A stretch of 61,239 nt of DNA, filler included. It is 7 parts of 7 records of this genome, joined end to end, with 100 filler letters (N's around TTAATTAATTAA, not from the genome) between each part and the next. Parts side by side here need not be neighbours in the genome. Positions count along the whole stretch, not along the records: positions 7,379 to 21,133 come from SRR31147125_76203; 6 more parts are not named here. One strand, written 5' to 3'. How positions within the stretch are numbered: position 1 is the first letter of the stretch; each line of letters begins with the position of its first letter. Below the pieces are notes generated by a model. It was given only the letters and a program-made list of their open reading frames with translations, did no database searches and was not told the DNA's origin. A program made the position numbers and the translations under genes. Below, in pieces: positions 5,258 through 24,200 of the stretch.

Positions 5258-5278
5258 ACACCCTCCAGATCAGTCGAA

Positions 5279-5775: not shown

Positions 5776-6027
5776 TCACGAGGTGCTAAAGGCACAGACC
5801 AACGATAAAGATTTTTCCGGTTTTTCCAGCCGCAACTGAACATCGCTGAGAGCGGTAAGGATCATCGCCCGATCATTGATCAGCACTTCAGTGCCGGCAG
5901 ACAGAATCAGGTCCCGGCTATCCCCCTCACACGTCAGCCAGCATCGACCACGGTTACAAACGACTCGATAATCCCTGAACAATTCACTCAGATCGATCAG
6001 CTCTCTCTTCCTTAATGACAGTTCCAT
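5776..6027 (-). CDS. DUF2917 family protein
   Basis: VVCNRGRCWLTCEGDSRDLIL signature. Divergent from a MocR regulator, the usual context. Confidence 0.8.
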   Translation of the reverse strand: MELSLRKRELIDLSELFRDYRVVCNRGRCWLTCEGDSRDLILSAGTEVLINDRAMILTALSDVQLRLEKPEKSLSLVCAFSTS

Positions 6028-6080
6028 AACAGCCTCCTCTTACTGTGTGACTTATTATGGAACGCCTTTACCAATCGTTC

Positions 6081-6140
6081 CAGATACAGGCGGACACAAT
6101 TGTATCCAACACAAAACAAACTGAACAAAACTGTACCCAT
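6081..6140. promoter_or_regulatory. candidate MocR operator sites between divergent DUF2917 and MocR genes
   Basis: GATACA (6083), near-palindrome GGACACAATTGTATCC (6092-6107) and direct repeats AAACTGAAC/AAACTGTAC (6118-6136). Confidence 0.5.
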
Positions 6141-6230
6141 TAATGTTACGCTCAACTGTGACTGTCAATAAATGAGGCCGCCTGTTAAAAACAAACAACG
6201 GATTGATGATAAAAGCCAAAGGAGAGCAGG

Positions 6231-7278: not shown

Positions 7279-7378
7279 NNNNNNNNNNNNNNNNNNNNNN
7301 NNNNNNNNNNNNNNNNNNNNNNTTAATTAATTAANNNNNNNNNNNNNNNNNNNNNNNNNNNNNNNNNNNNNNNNNNNN
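7279..7378. other. artificial contig spacer
   Basis: 100 nt of N flanking TTAATTAATTAA (stops in all six frames). Confidence 0.99.
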
Positions 7379-7508
7379 GGGTCACTATAAAAAAAACCAC
7401 ATCCAAAATAACCCGGATATTCTATAAAGTCTTTGCACCCTCAATGCTTTGATTCCGCATGAAACCTCTTTTTAGCCTGGCGAAAATATTTCAGTAAAAT
7501 CCATCTTC

Positions 7509-10340
7509 CTATTTATACTGAAATACCATTGCCCATATAATCAGGACAACCAGGCCGAAACCTAAAATAAGGAAAAAGAAACCAAAAATTCGGGACCAAA
7601 GAACCAGCCATTTCTTGGGCGGAGTACTATGCGTCAATTCATCCAGCTTGCCGGATTTTTTCAACAATTCATATTCACGCGGTCTTTCATGTTTCCATTC
7701 TGCATAGGGTACCTTACCCGTAAAAATAACCTGATCCATGGGAAATTTCTGCGGACGGAAATGCGTATTGAAAAAATGAATCGTAAAAATAAATCCGGTT
7801 GCTAACAACGCTTCATCACTGTGAATAATAGTCGCAACATTAATGAGATACCCAGGCATGATATAAGTAAAAAATTCAGGAAACCATAAAACAAGCCCGG
7901 TTGATCCAATGACTGCCACACCCCAGAAAACAGCAAAATAATCAAATTTTTCCCAATAAGTCCATCGGCCATATCTGGGAGCTTTTTTCCGGCCAAAAAA
8001 CCAGAGAATGGTCTGGTAAAACTCGACAAAATCACGTTTATTAGGTAACAATCCTTCCGAACTGAACATAAATTTCCAAATGCTTTTATTCTCTTTTTTT
8101 GCATTTTGATAGATATAGACAAAATGCAACCCAAAATAAAGAAAAGTGATAATTGCACAAAAACGATGAATGTCTCCAGCTGCCTCTACGCCTCCCATGA
8201 ATTTACTTATGGTGACAGCCCAATTATAATCAGCAAATTTAAGACTCATTCCTGTCAGAGCCAGCCCAAAAAAGCTGACAATAACCATAACATGTAAAAT
8301 TCGAGGGAAAAGCCCAAATCGCACCATGTATCGTCTTGGGTGCTTGGGCAGTTTTTTATGGAGTTCCACTCTCTCTCGTATCGATCGGGGGATCCATAAC
8401 AAGGTATGAAGTCCAAATACAGTAAAAACGCCGATAACCAGAAAAGTCATTGCCCAAAATGTATAAAACAAAGCAGGATACTTGTTACGATTATGGTGGG
8501 TCGCATGGGTTAGATATCCGGTAAATTTACGATTGGAATTCGGATGGCATGTCTTACACGTCTCAATGATATTTTGCCGACTCAAAGTTGAAGCTAATTC
8601 CGTGGGTGGTAAAATATTATGAGAGCCATGACAATCGGAACATTTAGCTGCTCTGGCAGAACCCAACTTGGATACTTTACCATGATAAGTCTCAAAATAA
8701 GTCTCGGTGACATCATCATGACACCCACCACATTGTGTTAAAATTTGATTTCTAAAATCACTTTTATCCACACGCTCTATTTCATGAGATCTATGACAAC
8801 TATTACAAGTTGGTAGCTTTTGGTCCGTTTGTGATACTGTTGGACTGTGGATCGAATTTTTAAACTCTTCATAAATTCCCAAATGACAACTGGCACATGT
8901 TTCTCCAACTTTTAAGGGATGAATACTTGAATTCGGATCCTTTGCAGGCAACGTCTTGTGAGCTTCGTGGCAATCACTGCAAACAGCAGAAACCATCAAT
9001 CCGCTTTCAAACAGTCCCTTACCATGAATACTCATGGTATAATGGGCAATAACTTGTGTTTCAGGTCCTTCGTACCTAACAGCCGCCTGTTCACCCTCAC
9101 GATGGCACATAGCACAAAGCGTTGGAAGATTACGGGGAAAAATGGGGGAAGCTAAATCCGATTTTGGTAATATATCATGCGTGCTGTGACAATTTGTGCA
9201 GGTAGGTGCATTCACATCTCCCTCTTGCAGCAATTGTCCATGGATACCTGAGAAAAAATCATCTGCTTCCCCAGCGTGACAGATAGAACAATCAACAGGC
9301 CCGGAATCCTTACAAATCGGTTTTCTTCTCCGACTGACATTGACATGGCATTTGACACAAGCGATATTTTGACTGTGAGCAGAATGTTGGATACTGCTTA
9401 GATCAACATAAAGCGAATCAGAAGTACTATCTGTTAATGTTCTTGTCAGGTTCTTATCCTGATGACACTCCATACAATAATGATCTGTAAATTCTTCGGC
9501 ATAAAAAACTCGACGAATTTTGTGCGGAGAGTGACAATCTACACAAGCCGGAATGATATGAGGCCGCTGCTCCCATAATTCACCACGAATGACTTTTTGA
9601 TGCACTCTCTCGATCTGAGCATGGCATTGCATACATGTTGCGGCAATATTGTTGCGGTTAATGGTTGAATTCGGATTGGTGTGTGGCAAAACATTATGAG
9701 AAGTGTGACAATTGGAGCAAACAGCTGTGACGGTTAATCCGCCCTGGAATAATCCTTCACCATGGATTGACATGGAATAATTTTTTACGATATCCTGCTG
9801 AGCTATTTTATGGCGTTTGGCTACGTCGCTATCTTCACGATGACACTGCCCACAGGTAGCAGGAATATTCATGACATAGGTAGGAGAATTCGGATCAGAA
9901 TGGTTTAAAATAGTATGTTTACCATGACAATCCACGCATGTCGGCGCATCAGGATCACCCTTTGCGGCAATTTGACCATGCGTGCTATTAACATGTTGCT
10001 CTCCCACTTCATCATGGCATATGGAACAGTCAACCTTTTCCAGGGGTGAGTCGTGTGGTAGCTCTTCAACATCGGCGTCAACGTGACATGAGACACAGCC
10101 GTTATCCTCATGCACAGTTCCTTTCAGGACACTTTCTTTTACAAAAAGGGATTTAACCTTTCCATCCACTTCACTGACCAAAGTGGCATCGGCATGACAA
10201 TCCAGGCACTCTTCATCCTCAATGGCCCATACAAATGGAAGCTGCAGATGAAATAAGACAAGGCAACTCAATATACAAAAGTAGACTAGAAAGGCGGAAT
10301 ACTTTTTACTCGTTTGCCAATTCTTTTTAACAAAAGACAT
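7509..10340 (-). CDS. 19-heme cytochrome c fused to a C-terminal di-heme cytochrome b (CbcL-like quinol:cytochrome c oxidoreductase)
   Basis: Signal peptide and 19 CxxCH counted. FdnI/HydC-like membrane domain (RILHVM, DIHRF, WEKFDYFAVFWG, IIHSDEALLA, IHFFNTH). Confidence 0.85.
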   Translation of the reverse strand: MSFVKKNWQTSKKYSAFLVYFCILSCLVLFHLQLPFVWAIEDEECLDCHADATLVSEVDGKVKSLFVKESVLKGTVHEDNGCVSCHVDADVEELPHDSPLEKVDCSICHDEVGEQHVNSTHGQIAAKGDPDAPTCVDCHGKHTILNHSDPNSPTYVMNIPATCGQCHREDSDVAKRHKIAQQDIVKNYSMSIHGEGLFQGGLTVTAVCSNCHTSHNVLPHTNPNSTINRNNIAATCMQCHAQIERVHQKVIRGELWEQRPHIIPACVDCHSPHKIRRVFYAEEFTDHYCMECHQDKNLTRTLTDSTSDSLYVDLSSIQHSAHSQNIACVKCHVNVSRRRKPICKDSGPVDCSICHAGEADDFFSGIHGQLLQEGDVNAPTCTNCHSTHDILPKSDLASPIFPRNLPTLCAMCHREGEQAAVRYEGPETQVIAHYTMSIHGKGLFESGLMVSAVCSDCHEAHKTLPAKDPNSSIHPLKVGETCASCHLGIYEEFKNSIHSPTVSQTDQKLPTCNSCHRSHEIERVDKSDFRNQILTQCGGCHDDVTETYFETYHGKVSKLGSARAAKCSDCHGSHNILPPTELASTLSRQNIIETCKTCHPNSNRKFTGYLTHATHHNRNKYPALFYTFWAMTFLVIGVFTVFGLHTLLWIPRSIRERVELHKKLPKHPRRYMVRFGLFPRILHVMVIVSFFGLALTGMSLKFADYNWAVTISKFMGGVEAAGDIHRFCAIITFLYFGLHFVYIYQNAKKENKSIWKFMFSSEGLLPNKRDFVEFYQTILWFFGRKKAPRYGRWTYWEKFDYFAVFWGVAVIGSTGLVLWFPEFFTYIMPGYLINVATIIHSDEALLATGFIFTIHFFNTHFRPQKFPMDQVIFTGKVPYAEWKHERPREYELLKKSGKLDELTHSTPPKKWLVLWSRIFGFFFLILGFGLVVLIIWAMVFQYK

Positions 10341-10565
10341 GGGCAGGGATCCTTTTATTGATAAATTCCTTATTACTATTTATTAATAGTGCTAGAATCG
10401 ATCAAATTTCTGTGGCCGTGGGCTTAAACGTGCTAGACCTCATAACCCATAGTACAAATAATATTTTCAAGAACAGTAAAAGTATCAATACCTGCCTTTA
10501 AATAACAAGTAAGACACTTTACAATTCATCGGGATCACATATCTAAAACATTCTTCGATCATCAC

Positions 10566-12521
10566 CTATTTATCGAATTTACCTTCCTGAATACCCCATT
10601 TTTTTGCGGTTTCATCATTTTCCGTTTTGCGTGTCATCTTTTTAAACCACGCAGGGAATCGTTCTTCCACTTCCTCTTCAGTCATTTTGCCGGTAAATCC
10701 TGTGAGATTGATGGGATAATCTTCAGGGTGAAAAATTGCAAAAAACATGTGATATATCAAAATGGCTAAAGTTGCTAACCAGGCTTCATAATAATGAATG
10801 GTTTCAGATACTTTAACAATCCAGGAAGGTAGCAAAAAAGTGGCGGTCGTAGGAAACCACAATACAAAACCGGTTATAGCCATGATAACAGTACCCCAAA
10901 CAAGGGCCCAGTACTCTGCTTTTTCAATATATCCATAACGGTCAAATTCTGGTTTTTTGTTTGTGATTCCAAGATGATATTTCATATTATCAAAAAATAA
11001 CCACACATCATTTATATTTGGTAATAAATTTTTTAGTTCGCCTCTCCACTTGCGTACAAATAAGAGATAGTAAATATGAAAAATACCAGCTAGCAGCATG
11101 AGCACGGCAGCGCCCCGGTGTACCAGTCCGCGTACCGTTTCAGTCAGCCCTAAACTTGTCAGTAATCGAACCCATCCTGCTTCCGGAAATTTTAACGCAA
11201 AACCCGTTATCACTAATAGAGTAAACGTGACAAACATGGTGACATGCTGAGCAACCCAGGCTTTATCAAAACGCTGTACAGTTTTTTGGACTTTAAGCGC
11301 ACGATATTTTGCGCGAACATAGGCAAACCAAATAATCGCATTGTGCAAAAACATGCCGCCAATCACAAAGACAATCAGATAAATATAAATGGATTTAATG
11401 ATGGCGGACAGATTATCCGCTTGTGATTCCGGATTAGCATGAACATAACTTCTTGTAAAGGCTTCTGTTACATTAATGTGACAATTACCGCATGTTTTCG
11501 TTAAATTAGCCGGATGTATGGTCGAGTGCGGATCATGCTGAGACAGAATGTTATGTATACCATGACAACTTGTACATTTTGCAGCAATTTTGGATCCCCT
11601 TATTGATGCCAACCCATGATAGCTACCTTCCCAGGACGCAACAGGATCCGGTAAAAGACCATATTTTTCATTTAGCTTTAGTAAGCCATGGCAAGGCGAA
11701 CACGTGTCTTCTGCGATATGTCCCGGATTTGTTGGCGATGAAGCTTCTGAAGGAGATTGAATTCCATGTTCACCATGGCAACTTGTACACGTTGGTGCAT
11801 CAAATTCACCTGCAGCCAGTGCGACACCGTGTATACTGGCATCATACTCGACAGTTTCCTCTTCATGACATTGGCCGCATGTATTCGAAATATTAAATCG
11901 AAATATGGGAGATTTTGGATTTGATTTCGGCAAAATCTCGTGACTGCCATGGCAACTTGCGCAAGTGGCTGCCATTTCATTACCATCAGCAAGAGCATGA
12001 CCATGCACGCCACTTTCAAATTTTTTAATGGGTTCTGTAATTGAAATATGGTTTATATATGATTCTTGTTCACCATCGTGACATTGTCCGCACGTTGTGG
12101 AGATATTAAGAGGATGTGACCTTGAATTTTCATCTTCTGAGCTTAATATATCATGTTTCCCATGGCAGGAAACGCAGGTGGGTGCTCTTAATAAACCTGC
12201 CTGCAAAAGTTGGCCATGAATACCATTTGCATTCATTTCCGCAACATCATCGTGACATGTACTACAATCCACTATGGCTAGTTTCTCCGGATGTGGATCA
12301 CCTTCCGCATCAGAATGACAATCGACACATTCCAGACCGCCATGAATGGATTCCTGATATGTGCTGTTATCAACAAAAAGAGATTTTTCCTCGCCAGATT
12401 CGAGCGTTTTCGTAAAATCAGATTCACCATGGCATTCCAGGCAATTATCCTGGGCATAAACTGCCAGTGAAATGGCAATAATGCATAAAATTAGATAGAA
12501 CACAAACTTGTATTTGTGCAT
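10566..12521 (-). CDS. 11-heme cytochrome c fused to cytochrome b (second CbcL-like paralog)
   Basis: Likely start MHKYKFVF at 12521 with signal peptide. 11 CxxCH. Cytochrome b domain (AQHV, LVHR, EKAEYWALVWG, IHYYEAWLA, IYHMF). Confidence 0.85.
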   Translation of the reverse strand: MHKYKFVFYLILCIIAISLAVYAQDNCLECHGESDFTKTLESGEEKSLFVDNSTYQESIHGGLECVDCHSDAEGDPHPEKLAIVDCSTCHDDVAEMNANGIHGQLLQAGLLRAPTCVSCHGKHDILSSEDENSRSHPLNISTTCGQCHDGEQESYINHISITEPIKKFESGVHGHALADGNEMAATCASCHGSHEILPKSNPKSPIFRFNISNTCGQCHEEETVEYDASIHGVALAAGEFDAPTCTSCHGEHGIQSPSEASSPTNPGHIAEDTCSPCHGLLKLNEKYGLLPDPVASWEGSYHGLASIRGSKIAAKCTSCHGIHNILSQHDPHSTIHPANLTKTCGNCHINVTEAFTRSYVHANPESQADNLSAIIKSIYIYLIVFVIGGMFLHNAIIWFAYVRAKYRALKVQKTVQRFDKAWVAQHVTMFVTFTLLVITGFALKFPEAGWVRLLTSLGLTETVRGLVHRGAAVLMLLAGIFHIYYLLFVRKWRGELKNLLPNINDVWLFFDNMKYHLGITNKKPEFDRYGYIEKAEYWALVWGTVIMAITGFVLWFPTTATFLLPSWIVKVSETIHYYEAWLATLAILIYHMFFAIFHPEDYPINLTGFTGKMTEEEVEERFPAWFKKMTRKTENDETAKKWGIQEGKFDK

Positions 12522-12679
12522 TCGAATGATTCCTATTATATTCGTCCAGCTACCAGTAATTTTTAAAATGGAAATTTTACGGAATATAATTTTTTTTGTT
12601 TGCAGATGCAAGACAATTCATATTATTAATGGAGGAAATGTCAGCAAGATAAGACAATGATGGATGTCTGTAATAAATA

Positions 12680-12722
12680 TAAAAACGCCCTATGATACAA
12701 TATTAATAGTAGCATAAGGCGT
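12680..12722 (-). terminator. terminator-like hairpin between c554 and the cytochrome bc genes
   Basis: Minus strand ACGCCTTATGCTAC-loop-GTATCATAGGGCGT followed by TTTT. Confidence 0.6.
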
Positions 12723-12771
12723 CAATTCTGAAAAATACAATAATTCTTTTTATTGAAAAAAAATGTTTTTT

Positions 12772-13329
12772 TTATTCCGTTGGTACCGGATGAGCAATTT
12801 TTGACCAGGCTTCTGCAAATTTGAAAGGTTTATAAGTCGGGCTTTCCTCATTATGACACGTTTTGCAGGTTGCTTCATCACCCTTTAAATATGAAACAGC
12901 TTTAGCATCTTGTGTGCCCGCGGCCAGCGCTTTCATTACCTTATTGGATTTATAAAGTGAACCAGGGCCATGACAAGCTTCACAACTGACACCTTCTTCC
13001 TGTGTTAAGGTGGCTGCCTTGGCAGTAGCCGGAGCTTCATAACCAGTAACATGACATTTTAAACACTTTGGTGATTGTTGGGGATCACCTTCTACACCTG
13101 CCTTTTTCGCTACAGCTTTTGCCTCTTCAGTGGCTAAAACTTCAAATGCCTTGGCATGAGGACCAGCAGCCCATTTTTTAAACTGCGCACCTCTTTTCTT
13201 ACTCATATGACACATTTTACATTTCTTAACGCCGATGTATTGAGCCGTTTTTGTTTGTGCCAATAAACTCATAGACAACACAAATATTCCCAACAAAACC
13301 AGAGTAAAAAGTTTCGTTAATTTATGCAT
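12772..13329 (-). CDS. periplasmic tetraheme cytochrome c554-family protein
   Basis: Signal peptide. YIGVKKCKMCH, CLKCH, GVSCEACHGPGS and CKTCH. GGAGG RBS. Confidence 0.88.
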   Translation of the reverse strand: MHKLTKLFTLVLLGIFVLSMSLLAQTKTAQYIGVKKCKMCHMSKKRGAQFKKWAAGPHAKAFEVLATEEAKAVAKKAGVEGDPQQSPKCLKCHVTGYEAPATAKAATLTQEEGVSCEACHGPGSLYKSNKVMKALAAGTQDAKAVSYLKGDEATCKTCHNEESPTYKPFKFAEAWSKIAHPVPTE

Positions 13330-13623
13330 ATGGCCTCCAGTTCTTATTTTGTACTTTTAGTATTAATCGGAATTGAGTAAAATAAAATTAATATTAATCA
13401 AAAAAGCAATAAAATAATATGTAATTCAATAAACATTTCTTAAATTGCCAATCAAGAGTGCTATCTAAAAACGTCCACCATGCTTAAAATACCTAAATTA
13501 GATTCTATGGAAACATAATTTTCTACACTCGTTTTTTTCTACTTGCTTTACTATTGGAATAATGTATTAATCTCATTATTTTGTTTTTAAAATAATCCTA
13601 ATACAAGAAGGAGGTCTTTGGTA

Positions 13624-14949
13624 ATGCCTGTGAATATGGCGCACACAAAAGATATTCTTGATTCCATCAGTGAAGGTGTTATTACCTTAGATAAAAATTT
13701 CAAAATCACATTTTTTAATCGTGCTGCTGAAAAAATAACGGGATACAGAAGCGAAGAGGTTCTTGGAAAATTTTGCAAACAGGTTTGTAATTCCGGCCTG
13801 TGCATGAATAGATGCCCCATTGCCCATGTCCTTAAAAGTGGAAATGTCATTCACGACCTTGCCTCAACGCTATTACATAAAAATGGGCATACTCTTCAGG
13901 TAAAGCTAAATTCCACTGTTTTATATAATGGAGAGGATGAACCAATAGGTGGTGTTATATCCTTCCTGGAAAAATCCGAATTTGATTTTTTAAAAGAAAA
14001 ATATGTCAAAGAGAATCAATATTACAATATTATTTCCCGTAATAAACTCATGCGGGAGATGTTCCAGTTAATCGAAGAGATCACAGATTCTGATGCCTCT
14101 GTTCTTATTCAGGGTGAATCGGGTACGGGAAAAGAATTAATCGCCAATGCGATACAGGAAAGCAGCAATCGATCAAAAAAACCTTTCATAAAGGTGAATT
14201 GTTCCATTTTCCCGCCGCATTTATTGGCAAGCGAACTGTTCGGACACGTAAAAGGAGCTTATACCGGTGCGATTAAAGATCGGATGGGAAGATTTGAAAT
14301 CGCTCATACGGGAACGATTTTTCTGGATGAAGTTGTAGAAATGCCATTGGAAATGCAATTACAGTTATTGCGTGTACTACAGGAAGGCACATTTGAAAGA
14401 GTTGGCGAATCTCTCACCAGAAATGTGGACGTACGGATCATCGCAGCCACAAATAAAAATATCAAAGAAGCGCTGGATTCCGGTGTATTTCGGGATGATC
14501 TTTATTACCGCCTAAATGTGATCCCAATCGAAGTGCCGCCTTTACGTGACCGCGCAGACGATATCCCCTATCTTGTGAAACACTTTATCAGCAAATTTAG
14601 TTTACTCTACAATAAAAACGTCCCGGAAATTGAGGATACAGCCATGGACATTCTCTTTCATTATAATTGGCCCGGAAATATTCGGGAACTGGAAAATGTC
14701 ATTGAATATGCGATCGCCCGCACAAAATCAAATGAAATTATCCAAGCATCGAAACTCCCCAGCAAATTAAGTCAATACGGATTGACTCAGAAAACAAAAA
14801 CATTTACACTCGAGGGGCAGGAAGGTATTGAACTTTTACAGCTATTGCAAAAACATCATTGGAACAAAAGTAAAGTAGCACAGGAACTCGGCATTGGCAG
14901 GACAACTCTCTGGCGCAAAATGAAATCTCATGGAATAGATACGATGTGA
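13624..14949 (+). CDS. sigma54-dependent activator, PAS-AAA+-Fis HTH, with C-X8-C-X3-C in the PAS domain (OrpR-like)
   Basis: GESGTGKE, SELFGHVKGAYTGA, FLDE, WPGNIRELEN and C-terminal HTH. PAS contains CKQVCNSGLCMNRC. Start codon uncertain (13618/13624/13636). Confidence 0.9.
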   Translation: MPVNMAHTKDILDSISEGVITLDKNFKITFFNRAAEKITGYRSEEVLGKFCKQVCNSGLCMNRCPIAHVLKSGNVIHDLASTLLHKNGHTLQVKLNSTVLYNGEDEPIGGVISFLEKSEFDFLKEKYVKENQYYNIISRNKLMREMFQLIEEITDSDASVLIQGESGTGKELIANAIQESSNRSKKPFIKVNCSIFPPHLLASELFGHVKGAYTGAIKDRMGRFEIAHTGTIFLDEVVEMPLEMQLQLLRVLQEGTFERVGESLTRNVDVRIIAATNKNIKEALDSGVFRDDLYYRLNVIPIEVPPLRDRADDIPYLVKHFISKFSLLYNKNVPEIEDTAMDILFHYNWPGNIRELENVIEYAIARTKSNEIIQASKLPSKLSQYGLTQKTKTFTLEGQEGIELLQLLQKHHWNKSKVAQELGIGRTTLWRKMKSHGIDTM

Positions 14950-14951
14950 TT

Positions 14952-15054
14952 GAAACATAGCTTTGCTGGAGAAACATATTGTTTCATTGTCATTATATAT
15001 CTATTTTTATTCCACTTAAAACCTATTCTTCTTTTTCTTGAAACATTTCGTTCC
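14952..15054. promoter_or_regulatory. candidate upstream activator sequences GAAACA-N3-TGTTTC
   Basis: Perfect palindrome at 14971-14985, degenerate copies at 14952 and 15040-15054, and another half-site copy at 13510. Confidence 0.6.
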
Positions 15055-15097
15055 ATTTTATCAATTTTCACACAATTGTTTTTACTGAACTTACATT

Positions 15098-15114
15098 TTG
15101 GCAAAGTATTTGTA
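15098..15114 (+). promoter_or_regulatory. candidate sigma54 (-24/-12) promoter for the right-arm operon
   Basis: TTGGCAAAGTATTTGTA: GG-N10-GT, a variant -12 element, just upstream of the TPR gene and downstream of the UAS palindromes. Confidence 0.55.
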
Positions 15115-15141
15115 GATGTATAACATCTTTGAGGGATTATT

Positions 15142-15585
15142 ATGTCTGAAATGTTAGGAAATCAATACTTTTTAGCACGAAATTACGTCAGAGCAGCTGA
15201 AGAATTAAGTCTCGCACTTTCTAAAACGCCTAAAAGCAAATCTATAAAACGCAAATTAATCGTCTGTTATACACAAACAGGTCAAATCCAAAATGCGCTT
15301 AAACTTTTTTTAGGATTGGTTAAAGAAGACGCAGACTATATCATTAATACAGATCCAATCGATGATGACTGTCCATGTGCGGAATTAGTATACGATGGCG
15401 AAAAACAGCTTTGTGTAAATAAAAATTCGTGCGAGTACCACTTGAGGCTTGGTATGCTCTGGCTTTACTGTGATATCCAAAAATCCATCAACTACTTTGA
15501 GACGGCACAAGGATTAAATCAACAAAATCCGCTTATCAAATCCATTTTATCGATTTTATACACGAAAATGGAACCAAAAAACTAA
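15142..15585 (+). CDS. TPR-like protein with DDDCPC motif
   Basis: Helical TPR-like segments (LGNQYFLARNY...A, LGMLWLY...A). No signal peptide. GAGGG RBS. Confidence 0.7.
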   Translation: MSEMLGNQYFLARNYVRAAEELSLALSKTPKSKSIKRKLIVCYTQTGQIQNALKLFLGLVKEDADYIINTDPIDDDCPCAELVYDGEKQLCVNKNSCEYHLRLGMLWLYCDIQKSINYFETAQGLNQQNPLIKSILSILYTKMEPKN

Positions 15586-15681
15586 ACCCGGTCGAATGGC
15601 TCACAGATTTGCAAACAGAAGCCATCTCAAATATTTATTTATCAGATTCAACACAGAATTAGATCAAACGGAGAACATGCA

Positions 15682-16974
15682 GTGAAAAAACAAACACTCT
15701 TATTACTTGTATTGCTTCTGGCCTTGACAGCATTGTTTTACACGCAATGCACAGAAAAGTACCCGGATGCGACCCAAACCGTAAAGGTAGCAGGAAAAGA
15801 TGGATGTACAACCTGCCATTTAGATGCTGAAAAGCTGAAAATGGTTGCAGCACCCCTGCCCCCTTCGGAAGGTGATGCAGGTGAAGGCTGAGGCGGCTCA
15901 GTGTCTCAGTTAGAGGCATGGCAGATGGTTCTCGTTAAAGAATCCTTTCTCTCTTCCACTCATGGTGAACTTGGTTGTACGGCCTGTCACCATGGAAATC
16001 CGCAATCTCAGGAAAAAGAAGCGGCACATGAAGGACTGGTAGCAGCTCCAAGTGACAGCTCTGAACAATTTTGTGGCAGTTGTCATGGGAATGTATCGTC
16101 CGAACACTATAACAGTCTTCACTCAAATCTGGCCGGTTATTACAAAAGAATCGAAAAAAGACTTGGGTATGACGTATCCACTGATCCGAATATAACAGCC
16201 AATTTCAATAAAGAATGCGGAAAATGTCATGCAAGCTGTGGTCAATGTCACGTTTCCAGACCTGTTTCAGTTGCCGGAGGCTTTGTAGACGGACATAATT
16301 TTAATCGTGAACCCAGCATGCGCGATAATTGCACGGCATGTCACGGTAGTCGGGTTGGTGCTGAATTTTTCGGCGAAAACGAAGGTATTAAAGCAGATGT
16401 ACACTGGATACCAAATGTTATGCGCTGTTCCTTCTGTCATAGCAGTGAAGCAATGCATGGCAGCAGCGAATCTGCCACGCACAGATATGAAGATACCGAT
16501 ATGGTCCGCTGTGAAGATTGCCATAGCGATGTTCAAGCCTCCAATGAATTCCATGAAAAACATTGGGGTAGCTTGTCGTGCCAGGTATGTCACTCACAGC
16601 CTTACAAAAATTGTAATAGTTGTCATACAGGCGGTGCCGGAATCACTGGTAGCTCCTATATGGGATTTAAAATCGCAAAAAATCCCATTAAATCAGCTCA
16701 TAGAAATTATGACATCGTTACAGTGAGACATATACCCATCGCGCGTGATACTTATGCAAGCTGGGGTATCCCTGATTTGCCCAATTTCGATTCGGAACCG
16801 ACATGGAAATATGCAACGCCACATAATATTCAAAGGTGGACAGCTCAAACAGACACCACGAATAGCGCATGGTGTGGTGCAAAATGTCACAACTCGGATT
16901 ATTACCTGACTCTTGATGATGTGGCACCTGATGAAGTCGAAGCAAACAAAAATATCGTTTTAACAAGAAACTAA
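15682..16974 (+). CDS. predicted selenocysteine-containing multiheme cytochrome c lipoprotein (430 aa, Sec at codon 70)
   Basis: ORFs 15682-15891 and 15901-16974 are in the same frame and are separated only by TGA (15889-15891) GGC GGC TCA. Lipoprotein-type signal only on the first part. 10 CxxCH plus 1 CxxxCH. SECIS-like hairpin follows. Confidence 0.75.
15892..15922 (+). promoter_or_regulatory. bacterial SECIS-like stem-loop
   Basis: Stem GTGTCTC (15901-15907) / GAGGCAT (15913-15919) with loop AGTTA (G in second position), 16 nt after the UGA. Confidence 0.7.
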
Positions 16975-17089
16975 TAAAATACAACATTATTAAAATATAT
17001 GGAGGTGTAGATCTTATAAAAAAACAGATTCATCACTTATTAATATTAATATCATATTTTTAGTTCAAAACAAACAGGAGAAACATATA

Positions 17090-18094
17090 ATGCTTAAAAG
17101 ATTACTTTTATTATTACTTGGTCTTTCAATATTTATGATGGCGGCTTGTAGTGATGATGATAATCCAGCTGAACCAGAGTCAATAAATGAATTTGATTTG
17201 GTTGCTGAAGTTGGTGAATTATACACAACGAATTACACAACCGTATCCGGTGCTGGAGTCAACATTAAAATTGGCGATATTTTCCCAATCCTCAATGATG
17301 GAAACACAGCAAACGATCCCTATATCATCGACCTTCGTTCGGCAACAGATTTCGCCACTGGCCATATCAAGAATGCAAACAATATTTCTATTTCAGCATT
17401 GATCGACAAAGTTGAAGACGGAACCATCCCTAAAGACAAAACCATCCTTAATGTTTGCTATACAGGTCAAACAGCCAGCTATGCAACATCTGTCCTCAAC
17501 ATGCTTGGCTACGAAGCACAAAATTTGCTTTTTGGTATGTGCGGTGTGACAACATCAAGTGATATTAACGGTACGGATAAGTGGATAGGTCAGATTGCTG
17601 CAGATGAATTTGCCACACAACTCACAGCAACTGAAACCAATCCAACTGCAGAAGTTGACTATCCTACTCTCTCCACTGGGAAAGATAATGCAGAAGAGAT
17701 TATTAAGGAAAGATTCAAAGCAGTAATGGCTTCCTCTGGTTGGGGACGAATTAGTGCCGCGGACGTGTTTGCAAATCCGGGTGGCTACTTTATTATCAAC
17801 TATTGGCCAAAAGCGGAATACCTTAATCCAGGACATATTCCAGGAGCATTCTGCTTTGAACCAAAAACATCTCTTAAAAGAGATGCCATGTTGAAATACC
17901 TGCCAACGGACAAAACGATTGTAATCTATTGTTACACAGGTCAAACTTCAGCTCAAATGACAGCCTATTTACAGCTGCTCGGATACGATGCAAAAAGTTT
18001 ACTTTATGGTGTGAACGGTTTTGGGTATAATGCACTTGCTGGCCACAAGTATGTGGCACCTGCTACCGATTATTCTGCAATTATTACTAATTAA
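17090..18094 (+). CDS. tandem-domain rhodanese (sulfurtransferase) lipoprotein
   Basis: Lipobox MAAC. Two rhodanese domains (GHIKNA...CYTGQTA and GHIPGA...CYTGQTS), both keeping the active-site Cys. Confidence 0.9.
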   Translation: MLKRLLLLLLGLSIFMMAACSDDDNPAEPESINEFDLVAEVGELYTTNYTTVSGAGVNIKIGDIFPILNDGNTANDPYIIDLRSATDFATGHIKNANNISISALIDKVEDGTIPKDKTILNVCYTGQTASYATSVLNMLGYEAQNLLFGMCGVTTSSDINGTDKWIGQIAADEFATQLTATETNPTAEVDYPTLSTGKDNAEEIIKERFKAVMASSGWGRISAADVFANPGGYFIINYWPKAEYLNPGHIPGAFCFEPKTSLKRDAMLKYLPTDKTIVIYCYTGQTSAQMTAYLQLLGYDAKSLLYGVNGFGYNALAGHKYVAPATDYSAIITN

Positions 18095-18103
18095 ATAAGT
18101 ATC

Positions 18104-18136
18104 AAAGGAGGCAATCATTTTCGATTGCCTCCTTTT
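18104..18136 (+). terminator. intra-operon terminator or stabilising hairpin after the rhodanese gene
   Basis: AAAGGAGGCAATC-ATTTTC-GATTGCCTCCTTT followed by T. Confidence 0.85.
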
Positions 18137-18168
18137 CATCGTTTACGATTTTAATCGTAGGATTGAAA

Positions 18169-19359
18169 ATGAAATCTAGATTATTATCCGTTTTTATCTT
18201 TTGCTTATTTTTATTTTCAGCACTCTCTGCTCAGGGTTTAAATTTTCATGGCAGTGTCAAAAATTCAATTTACAGTTATGAAAGTGAAAAAAGCCATACC
18301 AACATCTATCAATATGCCAGATTCAGTGTGGCAACTGCCAATAATAAAATAGCACTTAACACACTTGTTCGTGCGCTTACAGATGCGAATAATTCGCTCG
18401 ATAGCGATGAGCGCTTTAAAGCTTATTCTTTAAATATTCGTTTTAATAAATTTTTGTGGAATCGATTAAATCTGACTGTAGGTCGCCAATTCCTGCATCC
18501 GGGTACAGTTCTGGGAGCCCTTGATGGGGTCAATGGCCAGCTTGCCCTGCATAAAAATATCTCCCTGCAATTCTACGGTGGAACCGAAAGCCACTTTCAG
18601 CGTAGCTTTAAAATCTATGACGCTGAAGATAGTTTTGTTACAGGTGGCTTGTTAAAACTAAAAAAGTTTTATTCCACGGCCTTTCAATTTCTTTATTTGC
18701 AAAAAAGCAATAAAGACGATACCTTTTGGCAACTGACAGGACTGAATGTAGACAGCAAGATTTTACCTTCCACTCACATCCGCGTGCAATCTCATTATGA
18801 TTTACAAAATGAAACGATGCACCGCTTACTGGTTTCTGCCAGGCATACCTGGTCAGATCGATTACAAACAACTTTTGGTTACAAAAGCCAGAATCCTCAG
18901 ATCTATGCAAATTCTTATTTTACCATTTTTGAACTTGATCCTTATCGCCAGTATCGCGCCAGTGCAGCCTATGAAATAATGCCTGGTCTCTATGTGGATG
19001 GTCAATATCAATTTATTCAATTTGACGGTGACAACGCAAACAGAGCCTTCTTAACATTACAAAACAACAATGGAAGTATTGGCTTTGTTTATGAACAAGG
19101 ATATGCCGGGGATCAGATCGGTTTGATATTCGATTATGCTTACGAGTTATTCCCCAAAGTCATTACTTCACTATATATTGATTATTCCAAGTACCGCACT
19201 GAAGAAATCTATGAATATGAAAATCAGCTCGCCAATGCCCTTCGGGTATCGTACCGCCTTAATCGGCATTTCTCAGTTGATGTAGAATATCAGTGGTTAA
19301 CCAATAAATTTAAAGACAATGACTCCAGATTTTTAAATCATATTTCGTACAGATGGTAA
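18169..19359 (+). CDS. outer-membrane beta-barrel protein (porin of a porin-cytochrome conduit)
   Basis: Signal peptide, alternating aromatic/polar strands, LTVGRQF...LDG and terminal ISYRW. Lies between multiheme genes. Confidence 0.75.
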   Translation: MKSRLLSVFIFCLFLFSALSAQGLNFHGSVKNSIYSYESEKSHTNIYQYARFSVATANNKIALNTLVRALTDANNSLDSDERFKAYSLNIRFNKFLWNRLNLTVGRQFLHPGTVLGALDGVNGQLALHKNISLQFYGGTESHFQRSFKIYDAEDSFVTGGLLKLKKFYSTAFQFLYLQKSNKDDTFWQLTGLNVDSKILPSTHIRVQSHYDLQNETMHRLLVSARHTWSDRLQTTFGYKSQNPQIYANSYFTIFELDPYRQYRASAAYEIMPGLYVDGQYQFIQFDGDNANRAFLTLQNNNGSIGFVYEQGYAGDQIGLIFDYAYELFPKVITSLYIDYSKYRTEEIYEYENQLANALRVSYRLNRHFSVDVEYQWLTNKFKDNDSRFLNHISYRW

Positions 19360-19375
19360 AAGAAGGATTTTAATA

Positions 19376-20260
19376 ATGACGAACACTGTATTCAAACTAT
19401 TGCTGATACTAACAATACTTTTCGCCTCTGGTGCGACAAAGGCGCAAGAGGTCGAATTGTTATTTTCACACAAGCTTCATGCCGAGGACGTGGAAGCGTC
19501 CTGTACAGATTGTCATGCTGCAGCAGATACAAGTAGCCTTTCTTCTCACAATCTTTTGCCAGATATGGATACATGTTATAACTGCCATGATATCGATGCA
19601 GAGTGCTCATTGTGTCATAAAGATCCGGATAATGCTGTAGCTTATCCACGAATAACAACCTATATTGCTGAATTTCCACATGTCAAACATGTTACCCAGG
19701 AAATGGAATGCAGTACTTGTCATGCTAATGTGGAAAAAAGTGACAATATATTCGATTCTCATTTACCGACAATGGGCTCATGCGTGACGTGTCACAGCGA
19801 TGTTGAAAAAGTCGAATATTGTTATGATTGCCATGCATCTCAGGAAGACTTGAAACCTGCAGATCATAAATTAGACTGGACCAAAGCACATGGGCCAGCC
19901 AGTCACATTGATGACATTAATTGCGAGATGTGCCATTCAGATAATCAATGCCTGGAATGTCACCAGCAGGACAACCTGGATCGTAAAGTCCACCCACTTA
20001 ATTTTCGCAATAATCACTCACTTTTTGCAAAAGGCAATAAAGATAATTGCTATACCTGTCATGAAGAACTCTCTTTTTGTGCTGACTGTCATCGTCAGGA
20101 ACTTGTTCTGCCTCGAAATCATTCCAGCGCAGGTTGGTCAAATTTAAGTAATGGCGGTGGCCATGCCCGTGCTGCAAAGCTTGATATGGACGATTGTCTA
20201 AGCTGCCATAACGATAGCAATGGTAAACCAATTTGTGCCGAGTGCCATCAGGCAAATTAA
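19376..20260 (+). CDS. periplasmic 12-heme cytochrome c (c3/c7-like repeats)
   Basis: Signal peptide, FSHKLH, 12 CxxCH counted, KPADH..W..H repeats. Confidence 0.88.
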   Translation: MTNTVFKLLLILTILFASGATKAQEVELLFSHKLHAEDVEASCTDCHAAADTSSLSSHNLLPDMDTCYNCHDIDAECSLCHKDPDNAVAYPRITTYIAEFPHVKHVTQEMECSTCHANVEKSDNIFDSHLPTMGSCVTCHSDVEKVEYCYDCHASQEDLKPADHKLDWTKAHGPASHIDDINCEMCHSDNQCLECHQQDNLDRKVHPLNFRNNHSLFAKGNKDNCYTCHEELSFCADCHRQELVLPRNHSSAGWSNLSNGGGHARAAKLDMDDCLSCHNDSNGKPICAECHQAN

Positions 20261-20315
20261 GTCACAATCATTTTCACAAAATGAAAACCAAAATTGATTT
20301 CAAAAGGAATTATTA

Positions 20316-21022
20316 ATGAGGACATATTTCATCTTTAGCGTTGCGCTAGCGATCGCTTCGACCTTTGGTATAGTTGCTCTGATGATAAATCGCCACTTCC
20401 TTCTGCGGCGCATCCTGAAAGCTGGTCACAAACCGAATCCCAGGAATTTCATGGGAAAAAGGTCCTGGCCGCAGGATTCTCATCTTGTACGAGTTGCCAT
20501 GGCACAGATTTCAGTGGCGGGGAAAGTCAGGTTTCGTGTTTCACCTGTCATCAATCATTCCCGCATCAGGATGCCTGGCTGGAAATTTCAAATCCTGATT
20601 TCCATGGTGAATTTATCCGTAACGACAGCTGGTCGATGGTTTCCTGTCAAAAATGTCACGGTAATGATTATCGGGGTGGCAGCTCTGAAGCTTCCTGCTA
20701 TACCTGCCATAAAGAGGCAGGTGGACCGCAAGCTTGTAATGTGTGCCATGGAAGCCAGGATAACTTTGCTCCTCCTGAAGACCTGGATAATAACGTCGCA
20801 ACAACAGCTTTAGGAGTTGGAGCTCACCAACTTCACCTCAGTTTGTTTAATGACTGCAGTATATGTCATACCGTTCCTTCAAATGTATCTGATGCGGGTC
20901 ATATCGACAATTCACCTCACGCGGAAGTAAAAGATTCATGGGATTGGGATCGGGACTCTGCAACATGTGCAAATGCGTGTCACTCAGATCCAAATAAAAC
21001 GTATATCTGGAATAACTTTTAA
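20316..21022 (+). CDS. 7-heme cytochrome c lipoprotein (frameshift near 20365)
   Basis: Restoring one T gives ...TFWYSC-SDDK lipobox, then CTSCH, CFTCH, CQKCH, CYTCH, CNVCH, CSICH and CANACH. Confidence 0.8.
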
Positions 21023-21051
21023 ACAGCTTACACAAAACATGTAATACTCTG

Positions 21052-21088
21052 GCTCGTTTCCCCGTCAATATGGAAACGAGCTTTTTTT
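21052..21088 (+). terminator. Rho-independent terminator ending the operon
   Basis: GCTCGTTTCC-loop-GGAAACGAGC-TTTTTTT. Confidence 0.9.
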
Positions 21089-21104
21089 ATACTTTATCAA
21101 ACGT

Positions 21105-21133
21105 ATCGAGTAGGCGGCAGGGTCACCCCTGAC
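21105..21133 (-). mobile_element. probable 3' end (domain VI) of a group II intron, truncated by the contig end
   Basis: Minus strand GTCAGGG-GTGA-CCCTGCCGCCTACTCGAT: GNRA-capped stem, branch-A context CCTAC and terminal AT. Confidence 0.55.
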
Positions 21134-21233
21134 NNNNNNNNNNNNNNNNNNNNNNNNNNNNNNNNNNNNNNNNNNNNTTAATTAATTAANNNNNNNNNNN
21201 NNNNNNNNNNNNNNNNNNNNNNNNNNNNNNNNN
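21134..21233. other. artificial contig spacer
   Basis: N-run/TTAATTAATTAA/N-run. Confidence 0.99.
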
Positions 21234-24200
21234 CCTGGAGCTACTCCTAAAGAAATGGATGAGGGAATTACTTCGTTGGTCGAAAATAGTATTCGAGGAA
21301 TTTCTGGAATAAAAGAATTCTCATCGCAATCGCGAGAAGGTTCTGCAAGTATAACCATTACTGCCTTGAATGGTTATGATATGGATGAGTTGTTAGCTGA
21401 GGTGAAAAATGCAGTTGATGGAATCTCTAATTTCCCTGCAGCTGCAGAACGTCCAATCGTTTCGAAACAGCGATCAAGGGATATGGCCATGTTTATGTCC
21501 TTAGTATCCGAGTCGAATGATATTTTGGAATTAAACCGAATGGCAAACCGCATTGAAGATGATTTGTTGTCTACAGGAAAAATTTCGCAAGTAAGTATTA
21601 TGGGGCTTCCAAGAAATTTGGAGCTTGCTGTAGAGCTTAATGAAACCCAAATGCGCAGGTATAATCTTACTTTTAATGATATAAAAACAGCCATTTCAAG
21701 TAATAATCTTGATATCTCGGGAGGAACAATTCGAAGCCCACGAGAACAAATCAAGGTTATTAGTCGCCAGCGTTCAATCGATCCGCAGGATATTAAACAG
21801 ATAGTAATAAAGGCGAATACTAATGGACAGCTATTGAAAATTGGAGATGTTGCAACAGTTAAGCTTCAAGGTCCCGAAGACCCAAGCAATGGGTATATTG
21901 ATAAAAAACCAGCGGTTACTTTTTTAGTTCAGAAGTTGGTGAGTGAAGATTTGGAAGCAATTTCTAATGAAGTAAATGAATATATAAATGATTTTAATGC
22001 CAAAAATGATGATTTCAGAATTGAAGTTAAGATGGACTTTCTGCAAATGATTGATGGACAACTTTCGATATTGATTAATAACGGATTGCTTGGGGTTTGT
22101 TTGGTCATTTTACTTCTGTCTTTACTTTTAAATATTCGTCTTTCTCTTTGGGTTGCCTGGGGTATTCCTGCATCATTTCTTGGAATGTTTATCGTTGCGA
22201 GTCTTACAGGGGTTACCATAAATTTGATTAGCCTTTTCGGGATGATACTGATAATAGGTATTCTGGTTGATGATGGCGTCGTAATTGGTGAGAATATTTT
22301 CACGCATTTTGAAATGGGAAAATCACCTCGGCGTGCAGCTATCGATGGAACTTTGGAAGTGCTGCCAGCAGTGTTTACTTCGGTAACTACAACTATTATT
22401 GCCTTTCTTCCTCTATTATTTATTGAAGGGCAGATGGAAATGATGTACGAAATGGCATTTGTTGTTATTATTTGTTTGCTGTTTTCCTTACTTGAAGGAA
22501 TGTTTGTTTTGCCAGGGCATTTGGCAAATCCAAAGGTTCTAAAACCACAAAATAATAAATCATTCTATGGAAAGCTTCGGGTTGCTGTTGATAGGCTAAT
22601 TTTTGGTTTCAGAGATAAAACATATGCACCTTTTCTAAATTGGATTTTAAAACACAAAGGGCTTTCATTGGCTATCGTTACTTCTATGTTTATTATCACT
22701 TTTGGACTTGTTGGTAGTGGGAAAATTGCATTTACTTTTTTCCCACAGGCTCCTTCGGATATGTTTTCAATTGATCTGGCACTTAAGCCAGGAATAAATG
22801 AAGAAATAACAAAAGAAAAGCTATTTTACATTGAAGATAAAGTATGGGAAGTAAATAAAGAGTTGATGGAAACGTATGGAGATACGGTTTCATATATTTC
22901 ATCACTCAATGTAAATATGGGCAGTGCGTTTAGTGGTGCAGAATCAGGAACAAATGCCGGTATGATCCGTGTCTTTCTAAACCCGCTGGATAAAACACAG
23001 GTGTCAGATGAGCTTCTGAAGCGGAAAATTTCTGAGAAAGTCGGAAAAATACCTGAAGCATATAAGTTTGCTGTTGGCGCTTCTAACCGTTTTGGAGCAC
23101 CCGTTTCAATTAGCTTATTGGGCTACGATCCTGATATTTTGGAGGAGGCAAAAAATGAATTGGAAGCTGAACTGGGAAAAATGCCTGCTCTCTTTAATAT
23201 CACCAATAATAGTCAGATTGGAAGTCAGGAATTAAGGCTTACGTTAAAGCCAGAAGCTTATGCGCTTGGAATAACCGAACAGTCGTTAATGTCAGAAGTT
23301 AGACAAGGGTTTTATGGAGCACTTGCCCAGCGTGTGCAGGAAGGGAAAGATGAAATTTGGGTTTATGTGCGTTATACGCGTGATAACCGACAGAATGTTG
23401 GGCAGTTGGAGAATATGTTGGTACATACCCAAAGTGGTAATTACCCATTAGGGAGAATAGCTGAAATTACAACTGCACGTAGCCTGAGTACGATTAATCA
23501 CTATAATGGTCGTCGCGAAATTAGGGTTGATGCTTATCAGAAAGACCAAAGCCAGTCGGTTCCAGATATGTTAGATTATATAGAAACTGAGATTCTGCCT
23601 GTAATCGTTAAGAATCATCCTGAAATTACATATATGCACCAGGGCAACAGAAGGATACCAATGAGCAAGTGGGCAGTATGATGCTTTATTTTGGTCTTGC
23701 TTTCCTTGTAATTGTATTAATAATAATGATCTATTTCAAATCGTTCCGACAGGGAATATTGGTGATTGCGATGATCCCACTTGGCTTTATTGGAGCTATT
23801 TGGGGGCATGGTATGCATGGGCAGCCTGTTTCAATGATGAGCCTTTGGGGCATGGTTGCCCTGTCGGGTGTAATTATTAATGATGCAATTGTCTTTATTG
23901 CGAAATACAACCAGAACCTAGAGAGAGGTATGAAGTTGCAGGAAGCTGTGAAAAATGCAGGGATATCTCGATTTAGGGCTATTTTTCTAACTACTGTTAC
24001 TACTACCGCAGGATTAATGCCTCTTATTCTTGAAAACAGCCCGGATGCAAGAATGCTAATTCCAATGGCAATTTCACTGGCTTATGGTATTTTGTTTGGT
24101 ACTGTTTTCATCCTGATTATTTTACCTGTTATGATTGTAATAACGAATAAAGCAACGGTTGCTATTCGGAGTATCAAATCAACAGATATAATTGTTCCAG

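Follow-up and report, generated by a model that had tools for sequence, protein, structure and literature searches.

A predicted undecaheme selenocytochrome and a tandem rhodanese form the core of a putative sulfur-respiratory gene cluster in a Calditrichota/KSB1-like lineage

We analyzed a 61,239-nucleotide stretch of assembled DNA (here, the window) in which one 13.7-kb contig, at window positions 7379-21133, carries genes for six multiheme c-type cytochromes, an outer-membrane beta-barrel, a double rhodanese lipoprotein and a sigma54-dependent activator (genes A to J; Table 1). Central to this cluster is F, an undecaheme lipoprotein cytochrome whose gene almost certainly encodes selenocysteine (Sec) at an in-frame TGA, and next to F lies G, the rhodanese. 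We consider the contig to be probably, though by no means certainly, a sigma54-controlled anaerobic respiratory cluster that combines a selenocytochrome-rhodanese core for sulfane-sulfur reduction with an outer-membrane electron conduit. The best reading of the substrate, by analogy with known enzymes, would be sulfane sulfur in the form of polysulfide, thiosulfate or tetrathionate. What is firm is the set of genes, the signals that encode Sec, the cytochrome's pairing and fusion with rhodanese, and the predicted barrel fold. An initial annotation, made from the nucleotide sequence, had proposed a quinol-to-surface respiratory island of this general kind. Every gene that it named was found in its place, the two divergent arms do flank one activator (D, between minus-strand genes A to C and plus-strand genes E to J), and the heme-binding motifs of the six cytochromes come to exactly the same count, 62 CxxCH plus 2 CxxxCH.

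The reading frame of F opens with a GTG behind a GGAG sequence and encodes a lipoprotein signal with lipobox Cys23 and one CxxCH motif before it reaches the TGA at position 15889, past which it stays open for 360 more codons. This TGA almost certainly specifies Sec70, within the motif GEG-U-GG. Relatives of the locus were taken from species-representative genomes, in which the stretches matching two peptide patterns supplied 322 for comparison, and the best 80 of these 322 (L001 to L080) were used for all locus comparisons. TGA occupies the Sec column in 76 of the 79 informative loci (L012 is cut off at this column and lies outside the count), whereas two loci have Cys (TGT in L001 and TGC in L002) and one has Arg (CGG in L029). 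Exactly one in-frame TGA was present in 59 of the 62 ranges checked, and the three exceptions are the loci with Cys or Arg. Upstream of the TGA, the lipobox and a single CxxCH are conserved at the protein level among the related loci; the open reading frame (ORF) downstream has no signal peptide, which c-type cytochromes need.

Further evidence comes from RNA structure and from the translation machinery. As in the Geobacter selenoprotein MccSep (discussed below), a hairpin resembling a selenocysteine insertion sequence (SECIS) lies 3' of the UGA. The hairpin was drawn by hand after RNAalifold had given none; when counted across 41 sequences, 76.2% of its cells pair, compared to 64.9% in shuffles, and none of 500 shuffles reached the observed value. 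Compensatory changes occur at six of its eight pairs, and controls in which the hairpin was slid along the alignment pair at 36 to 55%. SelB scored above cut-off in the genomes of all three TGA-type loci checked (L003, L006, and L033) and, for the Cys-type loci, in the genome of L002 and not in that of L001. Together, the conserved TGA column, the single in-frame TGA, the covarying hairpin and SelB in relatives uphold the selenoprotein reading that the initial annotation gave to this multiheme lipoprotein.

We regard it as extremely improbable that the TGA is a true stop that leaves a small monoheme lipoprotein and a separate 357-amino-acid cytochrome, or simply a broken gene. Gene callers do annotate the locus in this way in most records, and a GTG start is found 12 nt past the TGA; against this, the downstream ORF has no signal peptide, the single TGA keeps its column in 76 of 79 loci spread over many phyla, two others having Cys there, the hairpin 3' of it covaries, and SelB is present in the relatives checked. 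A database search with F found more than 2,500 relatives, and of the 120 listed, 117 cover at most 83% of the query and only three are full length, as would follow if most genes had been called from a start just past the TGA. Similarly, 34 of 150 listed members of the wider family start directly after the Sec column. Gene callers mostly miss the Sec read-through, and the homologues as called are without the signal peptide and the first heme.

The second component of the core is the rhodanese. As initially described, G comprises two rhodanese domains behind a lipoprotein signal, and its active-site residues C123 and C281, both situated in CYTGQT loops, are invariant in 32 sequences. In a survey of neighboring genes (tblastn of ten window proteins against the 80 loci), a rhodanese gene lay directly beside F in 66 loci, downstream in 58 and upstream in 8. 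Six of the 14 loci that have no adjoining rhodanese run off the contig, L029 (the Arg form) and L077 show none, and L079 has a single-domain rhodanese that fell below the coverage filter; L065, L067, L076, and L080, which were also counted as having none, were not inspected one by one. The Cys-type locus L002 retains no more of the rhodanese gene than its final ~80 codons (L002:10736-11042), in a genome that still has SelB. A Pfam scan of 14 long relatives showed the cytochrome fused to rhodanese in two (P0153 and P0177), joined to an N-terminal NapC/NirT domain in one and to cell-wall-binding repeats in another. The functional coupling of rhodanese and Sec cytochrome that had been proposed from the window is therefore strengthened by the adjacency in 66 of 80 loci, by the fusions in 2 of 14 long relatives, by the invariance of both active-site Cys residues and by the absence of rhodanese from the Arg variant L029 and its reduction to a remnant in the Cys variant L002.

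Comparison of whole loci separates this core from its surroundings. The F-rhodanese pair stands alone among housekeeping genes in L033, L030, L056, and L009, and the idea that the contig is one indivisible island was not borne out. Among the 60 loci with at least 5 kb of sequence downstream, 27 have the barrel, 30 the 12-heme gene, 25 the 7-heme gene, and 27 both barrel and 12-heme gene; among the 56 with at least 3.5 kb upstream, 25 have a sigma54 activator within 4.5 kb and 19 a TPR gene upstream of F. Cytochrome b fusions of the B type, at a coverage of at least 50%, were found in 19 of 80 loci. The conserved core is the F cytochrome plus rhodanese, with or without the sigma54 activator and the TPR gene; to it are added, mainly in records labeled Calditrichota or KSB1, the barrel, the two cytochromes with 12 and 7 hemes, and the cytochrome b fusions. 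All eight kinds of part occur together in eight loci (L002, L014, L016 to L020, and L047). A failure of the gene set to be conserved had been named beforehand as grounds for rejecting the proposal; the set is conserved, and L002, from a Calditrichota metagenome-assembled genome (MAG), is collinear with the whole contig at 61 to 76% identity, with the copy of A 73% identical and in the same position. In L029 (positions 6250-8100), and also in L022 and L023, the gap between the F homologue and the barrel holds, in a translation read by eye, a multiheme cytochrome instead of a rhodanese, and this cytochrome ends in a domain resembling those for type IX secretion sorting.

When F was aligned with its close relatives (44 sequences), each of its 11 heme motifs proved wholly or almost wholly invariant, compared to 10 invariant His residues outside the motifs, so that one heme may be without a His distal ligand. 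No Cys outside the motifs is invariant, the lipobox Cys23 and the Sec/Cys column being nearly so. A Lys ligates the catalytic heme in the octaheme tetrathionate reductase family; in F, K309 is invariant in these 44 close relatives and varies in the wider family, and the F model contains no hemes from which ligands could be read. The AlphaFold2 model of F has a mean predicted local distance difference test score (pLDDT) of 83.1 and a predicted template modeling score of 0.75. When this model was compared with structure representatives (VIA-align), the sole outlier was 1sp3, the octaheme tetrathionate reductase (OTR) of Shewanella oneidensis, with a Z score of 9.1 and a root mean square deviation of 4.2 over 249 residues; the alignment spans residues 91-430 of the F model, and the runner-up reached a Z of 4.2. 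The F family profile also matches 1sp3, at an E value of 1.5e-6, whereas the single F sequence searched against PDB gave a best E value of 0.027.

Given that OTR (family TIGR04315) is both the best structural and the best profile match, we take F to be distantly related to this octaheme enzyme, which cleaves an S-S bond, or at the least to share its fold. F differs from it by three extra hemes (11 versus 8), by an N-terminal extension that holds one heme and the Sec segment, and by its lipid anchor. The stretch of OTR that includes K56 and C64 (numbering from the profile alignment), residues whose roles are said to have been described by Mowat et al. in 2004, aligns to a Cys-free stretch of F.

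The wider family is large. A profile search of the full library (1.84 billion) returned 1478, 616, and 207 cluster representatives at E ≤0.001, 1e-10, and 1e-30, respectively. Three distant members (P0185, P0256, and P0149) are fused to a NapC/NirT quinol-dehydrogenase domain, to CWB2 cell-wall-binding repeats or to CarboxypepD_reg, and with such varied fusions the catalytic module seems to have been plugged into different envelopes and electron inputs. Literature searches on this family (with terms covering selenocysteine, multiheme cytochromes, rhodanese, octaheme, KSB1, and Calditrichota) found no description of it, and the homologue lists in the supplements of PMC13510729 and of a selenoproteome review may include it.

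The closest functional precedent is MccSep, the ExtKL protein of Geobacter sulfurreducens (GSU2937-2936), a polysulfide reductase needed for respiration of S0 (Mihara et al., Sci Adv 2026, PMC13510729). MccSep is a soluble periplasmic tetramer with five hemes, one of which is His/Cys ligated, and its Sec325 (in a DGUP motif) lies in a loop of a C-terminal Ig-like domain; the Sec is catalytic, polysulfide is the better substrate and selenite is reduced less well, and homologues occur mainly in Desulfobacterota and Nitrospirota (PMC13510729). The ExtHIJKL cluster encodes a rhodanese lipoprotein, a barrel with 21 transmembrane strands and a Sec-cytochrome (PMC6148476). Likewise, the cluster reported here encodes a lipoprotein of the rhodanese family together with a barrel of the outer membrane and a multiheme selenoprotein of the c type. 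By contrast, F is a lipoprotein with 11 heme motifs and with its Sec near the N-terminus, and outside its motifs no Cys is invariant, the nearly invariant Cys23 and Sec/Cys column excepted. The MccSep model NF040886 does not match F and scored above cut-off in none of five genomes that carry F, a family found under the labels Calditrichota, KSB1, Eisenbacteria, Gemmatimonadota, and others.

The analogy drawn initially with Geobacter ExtHIJKL therefore holds for the set of rhodanese, barrel and Sec-cytochrome and fails for the Sec cytochrome itself, which does not fit the ExtKL model; in that part, the likeness to Geobacter would be convergent. The surroundings differ too: the Geobacter ext cluster lacks a cytochrome of the outer membrane and is accompanied mostly by a LysR regulator (PMC6148476), whereas here there are 12-heme and 7-heme cytochromes and a sigma54 activator. 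A 2026 review table gives three cytochrome-type selenoprotein families, ExtKL, GSU2204, and the OTR family, and notes GenBank annotations as selenoproteins for some members of the last (PMC13188914); the GSU2204 model, NF041027, was not among the matches of F in NCBIfam scans. The cluster is a variation on the rhodanese/barrel/Sec-cytochrome theme that carries a selenocytochrome family outside the MccSep models, a family for which we found no description in the literature.

In the scheme that we favor, we infer the substrate, the direction of electron flow, the site of each lipoprotein and the hand-over of sulfur. The cytochrome b/multiheme fusions A and B would oxidize menaquinol, and electrons would cross the periplasm via the tetraheme C to F. 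G would draw on polysulfide, S0 or thiosulfate for sulfane sulfur, hold this as a cysteine persulfide and pass it to Sec70, forming a Se-S adduct that the hemes would reduce to sulfide. Sec70, located in a glycine-rich N-terminal loop, would act in F as the nucleophile on a chalcogen-chalcogen bond. In Wolinella Sud/Psr, and with tandem rhodaneses, an envelope rhodanese carries sulfane sulfur to a terminal reductase; the acceptor in Sud/Psr is a molybdoenzyme, whereas the presumed acceptor here would be a heme selenoenzyme. Beyond the core, H, with I threaded inside it, and J would make up a porin-cytochrome-type module that extends the chain across the outer membrane to insoluble acceptors, and D, via a conserved Cys cluster in its PAS domain, would turn on the operon that begins at the TPR gene.

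A bolder proposal, which we put forward tentatively and hold to be possible and no better than that, is that F is the first of a second, independent class of multiheme selenoenzymes. These would be undecaheme proteins of the OTR fold in which a Sec on a mobile glycine-rich loop takes sulfane sulfur directly from a tandem rhodanese, the sulfur then being reduced at the heme that may be without a His distal ligand. At the boldest, Sec70 itself would be the axial ligand of that heme; we know of no natural selenolate-ligated c-type heme described before.

Unlikely, in our estimate, is that the F-G pair chiefly reduces or detoxifies selenium or tellurium oxyanions, with the rhodanese handling selenium. 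MccSep reduces selenite too (PMC13510729), and deletion of extI harms selenite and tellurite reduction in Geobacter (PMC6148476); moreover, G gives weak matches, below cut-off, to selenouridine-synthase rhodanese models. Yet MccSep prefers polysulfide about sevenfold in Vmax/K0.5 (PMC13510729), a detoxification system would seldom call for two quinol dehydrogenases plus a 12-heme wire across the membrane, and the F family is widespread in MAG lineages from sediment and sulfidic habitats.

Operation in the opposite direction also seems quite unlikely. Electrons would then pass from thiosulfate, sulfide, S0 or metal sulfides to the quinone pool, with F acting like TsdA or SoxAX, His/Cys-heme enzymes that oxidize thiosulfate, and the MccSep authors allow that the reaction may be the reverse (PMC13510729). 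Cytochrome b/c fusions are workable both ways in principle, and an exported rhodanese has been tied to metal-sulfide oxidation in Acidithiobacillus (PMC6148476). Reduction is favored by the closest fold, OTR, and by the nearest functional precedent, both of which are reductases, and family and domain scans of the proteins encoded on the cluster contig found no sox, dsr or sqr genes. The host lineages, in addition, are probably mostly anaerobic heterotrophs.

Several results weigh against sulfane-sulfur reduction by a Sec-dependent F linked to an outer-membrane conduit. The Sec loop is a weak part of the F model (mean pLDDT of 55 for residues 61-70, in a heme-free model), and Foldseek of this model against PDB returned no match at E ≤0.001. 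The Z score of 9.1 is only modestly higher than unrelated models can score. F matches no curated family: its NCBIfam hits at E ≤10 include neither NF040886 nor the OTR model TIGR04315 and are ExtM, ExtS, and DmsE only, far below cut-off. Its function is transferred from known enzymes solely by analogy. Among 21 distant full-length members, the residue aligned to the Sec column is Cys in 7 and another residue in 14, and the cytochrome-rhodanese fusion P0177 has Tyr there, although the alignment of the loop is uncertain in both comparisons. At the RNA level, the region 3' of the UGA, folded as a single sequence, did not surpass its shuffled controls (z of -0.25), and RNAalifold gave neither a consensus structure nor any pairs for the 41 sequences, probably because a subset of them has the hairpin shifted by one codon. 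With respect to the conduit, the favorable prediction for H with I, described below, may stem from likeness to the solved MtrAB complex, H could instead be a substrate porin, and J is frameshifted. In addition, J follows the rhodanese with no barrel in L008, L012, and L043, and J as an outer-face cytochrome is therefore not established.

The genes downstream of the rhodanese resemble MtrAB(C) of Shewanella (6r2q) and OmaB-OmbB-OmcB of Geobacter in that a barrel stands beside periplasmic and lipoprotein multiheme genes. The model of H is a 22-strand barrel with short loops (pLDDT of 84.7), whereas the MtrB barrel has 26 strands. H falls in no MtrB/PioB or other barrel family (0 NCBIfam families at E ≤10), its sole Pfam match is a sub-threshold one to YfaZ, and its structural neighbors by Foldseek are generic porins and ushers with TM-scores of ≤0.57; its Atlas neighbors are unannotated clusters from Calditrichota, Thermodesulfobacteriota, and Zixiibacteriota. 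Prediction of a complex of H with I scored 0.78, compared to 0.00 for the best of three controls. The mark that it passed is reached by 51 of 78 solved complexes and by 2 of 108 mismatched pairs. At least 58% of the contacts are shared between runs, with a partner pLDDT of at least 69. Alternate strand residues all round the barrel contact residues 162-293 of I, so that the C-terminal half of I is predicted to sit in the lumen of H, as in porin-cytochrome conduits. The model supports binding of I by H and is not proof of it. A barrel that was too small, or that docked no cytochrome, had been named in the initial annotation as a finding that would tell against it; the barrel has 22 strands, and the 12-heme I enters its lumen in silico.

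These results bear on whether the cluster is mainly a porin-cytochrome (Pcc) conduit to metal oxides or an electrode, in which F would be a plain electron-transfer cytochrome and the rhodanese and Sec accessory or protective. The genes for the barrel, the periplasmic 12-heme protein and the lipoprotein cytochrome are ordered as in a classical Pcc cluster, the predicted insertion of I into H reached the mark, and quinol oxidases like CbcL are typical of extracellular electron transfer (PMC9129911). We nevertheless hold this to be distinctly unlikely, since F and rhodanese occur with no barrel or extra cytochromes in several genomes, the barrel is present in fewer than half of the loci with room for it downstream (27 of 60), the costly Sec is kept in 76 of 79 loci, and the rhodanese fusions point to chalcogen chemistry.

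Reading of the 7-heme lipoprotein J is complicated by the assembly. Its heme motifs and its signal are present, as had been described, but no intact ORF joins them: the signal peptide begins at ATG 20316 in one frame, and the heme domain (20339-21019) lies in another. In J orthologues from other loci, the signal peptide is intact and includes a lipobox cysteine. On the next contig, a gene for an AcrB-type pump (21255-24277, from the contig edge) is split into two frames near 23670, one ORF matching positions 58-839 of the Pfam profile and the following ORF positions 863-1019, and the ORFs 27779-28462 and 28246-29934 of the window overlap. The assembly thus seems prone to indels, and for the frameshift in J an assembly indel is at least as likely as a true pseudogene. 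Acidic tails follow the lipobox Cys in both G (C-S-D-D-D) and J (C-S-D-D-K), and we take them to recall the surface-export signal of Bacteroidota lipoproteins.

At the inner membrane, A and B each join a PF01292 domain to a multiheme c domain. In layout, they are like CbcL of Geobacter sulfurreducens, in which a di-heme cytochrome b membrane domain is joined to a periplasmic multiheme c domain (PMC9129911); the comparison is one of architecture, and CbcL has 9 c-hemes versus 19 in A and 11 in B. The listed TTG start of B is probably too early, as ATG 12521 opens a signal-like helix. The tetraheme C, likely an electron shuttle, also matches the C-terminal part (positions 400-512 of 519) of an NCBIfam model of UshA-like (seleno)proteins at an E value of 1.5e-17, well below the cut-off.

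Regulation by sigma54 is suggested by the activator and by a candidate promoter before the TPR gene. The site, at 15099-15113, has two mismatches to the sigma54 consensus, and window-wide the consensus is no commoner than chance (55 matches versus 61.6 expected). Of 24 related loci, 14 have a GG[CT]A-N6-TTG[CT] site upstream of their TPR gene, and the putative promoter draws its weight only from its position and from this conservation. No convincing sigma54 site was seen, by eye, in front of the minus-strand arm. The PAS domain of D (residues 45-75) holds a Cys cluster, C53/C62/C66 plus C57, in the pattern C-x3-C-x4-C-x3-C-P, and at least three Cys occur in this stretch in all 30 matches from related loci. 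FisR is reportedly a sigma54-dependent persulfide sensor; that the cluster in D is a redox, Fe-S or sulfane-sulfur sensor is a reasonable guess, no more, by such analogy.

Six N44-TTAATTAATTAA-N44 linkers connect the contigs that make up the window, and the neighboring window genes were rejected as context for the cluster, as they are situated on other contigs. The GC content of the cluster contig is 0.36-0.41, compared to 0.47-0.53 for window positions 1-8000, most of which belong to the preceding contig. From contig to contig along the window, GC shifts through about 0.52, 0.40, 0.37, 0.50, 0.43, and 0.53, and the record may therefore be a mixed bin. The loci closest to the cluster are labeled Calditrichota, KSB1 and similar MAGs, a Caldithrix MAG supplies L038, and the host, judged from the sequence, appears to be an uncultured Calditrichota/KSB1-like bacterium. 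An AT-rich lineage other than Geobacter, as first suspected, agrees both with these labels and with the collinearity of L002 along the whole contig. On another contig (28246-34107), genes for a sigma54 activator, for a molybdopterin oxidoreductase (30368-32620) and for a membrane subunit of the NrfD type (33103-34107) form a layout that resembles polysulfide, thiosulfate or tetrathionate reductases, and a perfect TGGCAC-N5-TTGC site (30218-30232) lies upstream of the molybdopterin gene.

Table 1. Features of the cluster contig and positions of the linkers, in window coordinates.
Feature	Position	Strand	Basis or remark
A, inner-membrane cytochrome, 943 aa; N-terminal periplasmic part with 19 CxxCH, C-terminal cytochrome b	7509..10340	-	PF01292, residues 674-853
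B, cytochrome c/b fusion, 11 CxxCH	10566..12611	-	PF01292, residues 449-629
C, periplasmic tetraheme cytochrome, 4 CxxCH, signal peptide	12772..13329	-	c554 family, PF13435
D, sigma54-dependent activator: PAS, AAA+ sigma54 interaction domain, HTH_8	13618..14949	+	PF00158, E 5.8e-69
Sigma54-type -24/-12 promoter-like site, TGGCA-N7-TTGT	15099..15113	+	Ends 29 nt before the TPR gene start
E, small TPR protein, opens the plus-strand operon	15142..15585	+	Domain match
F, undecaheme lipoprotein selenocytochrome (predicted), 430 aa, 10 CxxCH + 1 CxxxCH	15682..16974	+	Read through TGA 15889-15891
SECIS-like hairpin, 12 nt 3' of the UGA	15901..15919	+	Covariation among relatives
G, lipoprotein with two rhodanese domains	17090..18094	+	PF00581 in two stretches
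H, outer-membrane beta-barrel, 398 aa, 22 predicted strands, short loops	18163..19359	+	Structure model
I, periplasmic 12-heme cytochrome, 12 CxxCH, Sec-type signal peptide	19376..20260	+	Motif count
J, 7-heme lipoprotein cytochrome, 6 CxxCH + 1 CxxxCH, frameshifted as assembled	20316..21022	+	Motif count
Linkers between contigs	7279-7378, 21134-21233, 27392-27491, 34201-34300, 44800-44899, 50813-50912		

The MccSep work (August 2026) named a multiheme selenoprotein as the long-sought sulfur reductase of Geobacter (PMC13510729). The F family presents the same partnership in phyla for which we found no sulfur-reduction enzyme assigned in print; for Calditrichota and KSB1, it supplies a candidate for sulfur respiration that experiments can test, and it serves as a natural experiment in how Se-heme catalysis may have converged. 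Annotation would gain directly, as reading the UGA as a stop removes the signal peptide and the first heme in most of the listed homologues. If the reading of F as a second class of multiheme selenoenzyme is true, then heme-plus-selenium reduction of polysulfide (or of thiosulfate or tetrathionate) arose at least twice, and Calditrichota, KSB1 and related sediment phyla would commonly respire sulfur by a route that has been overlooked because gene callers stop at UGA.

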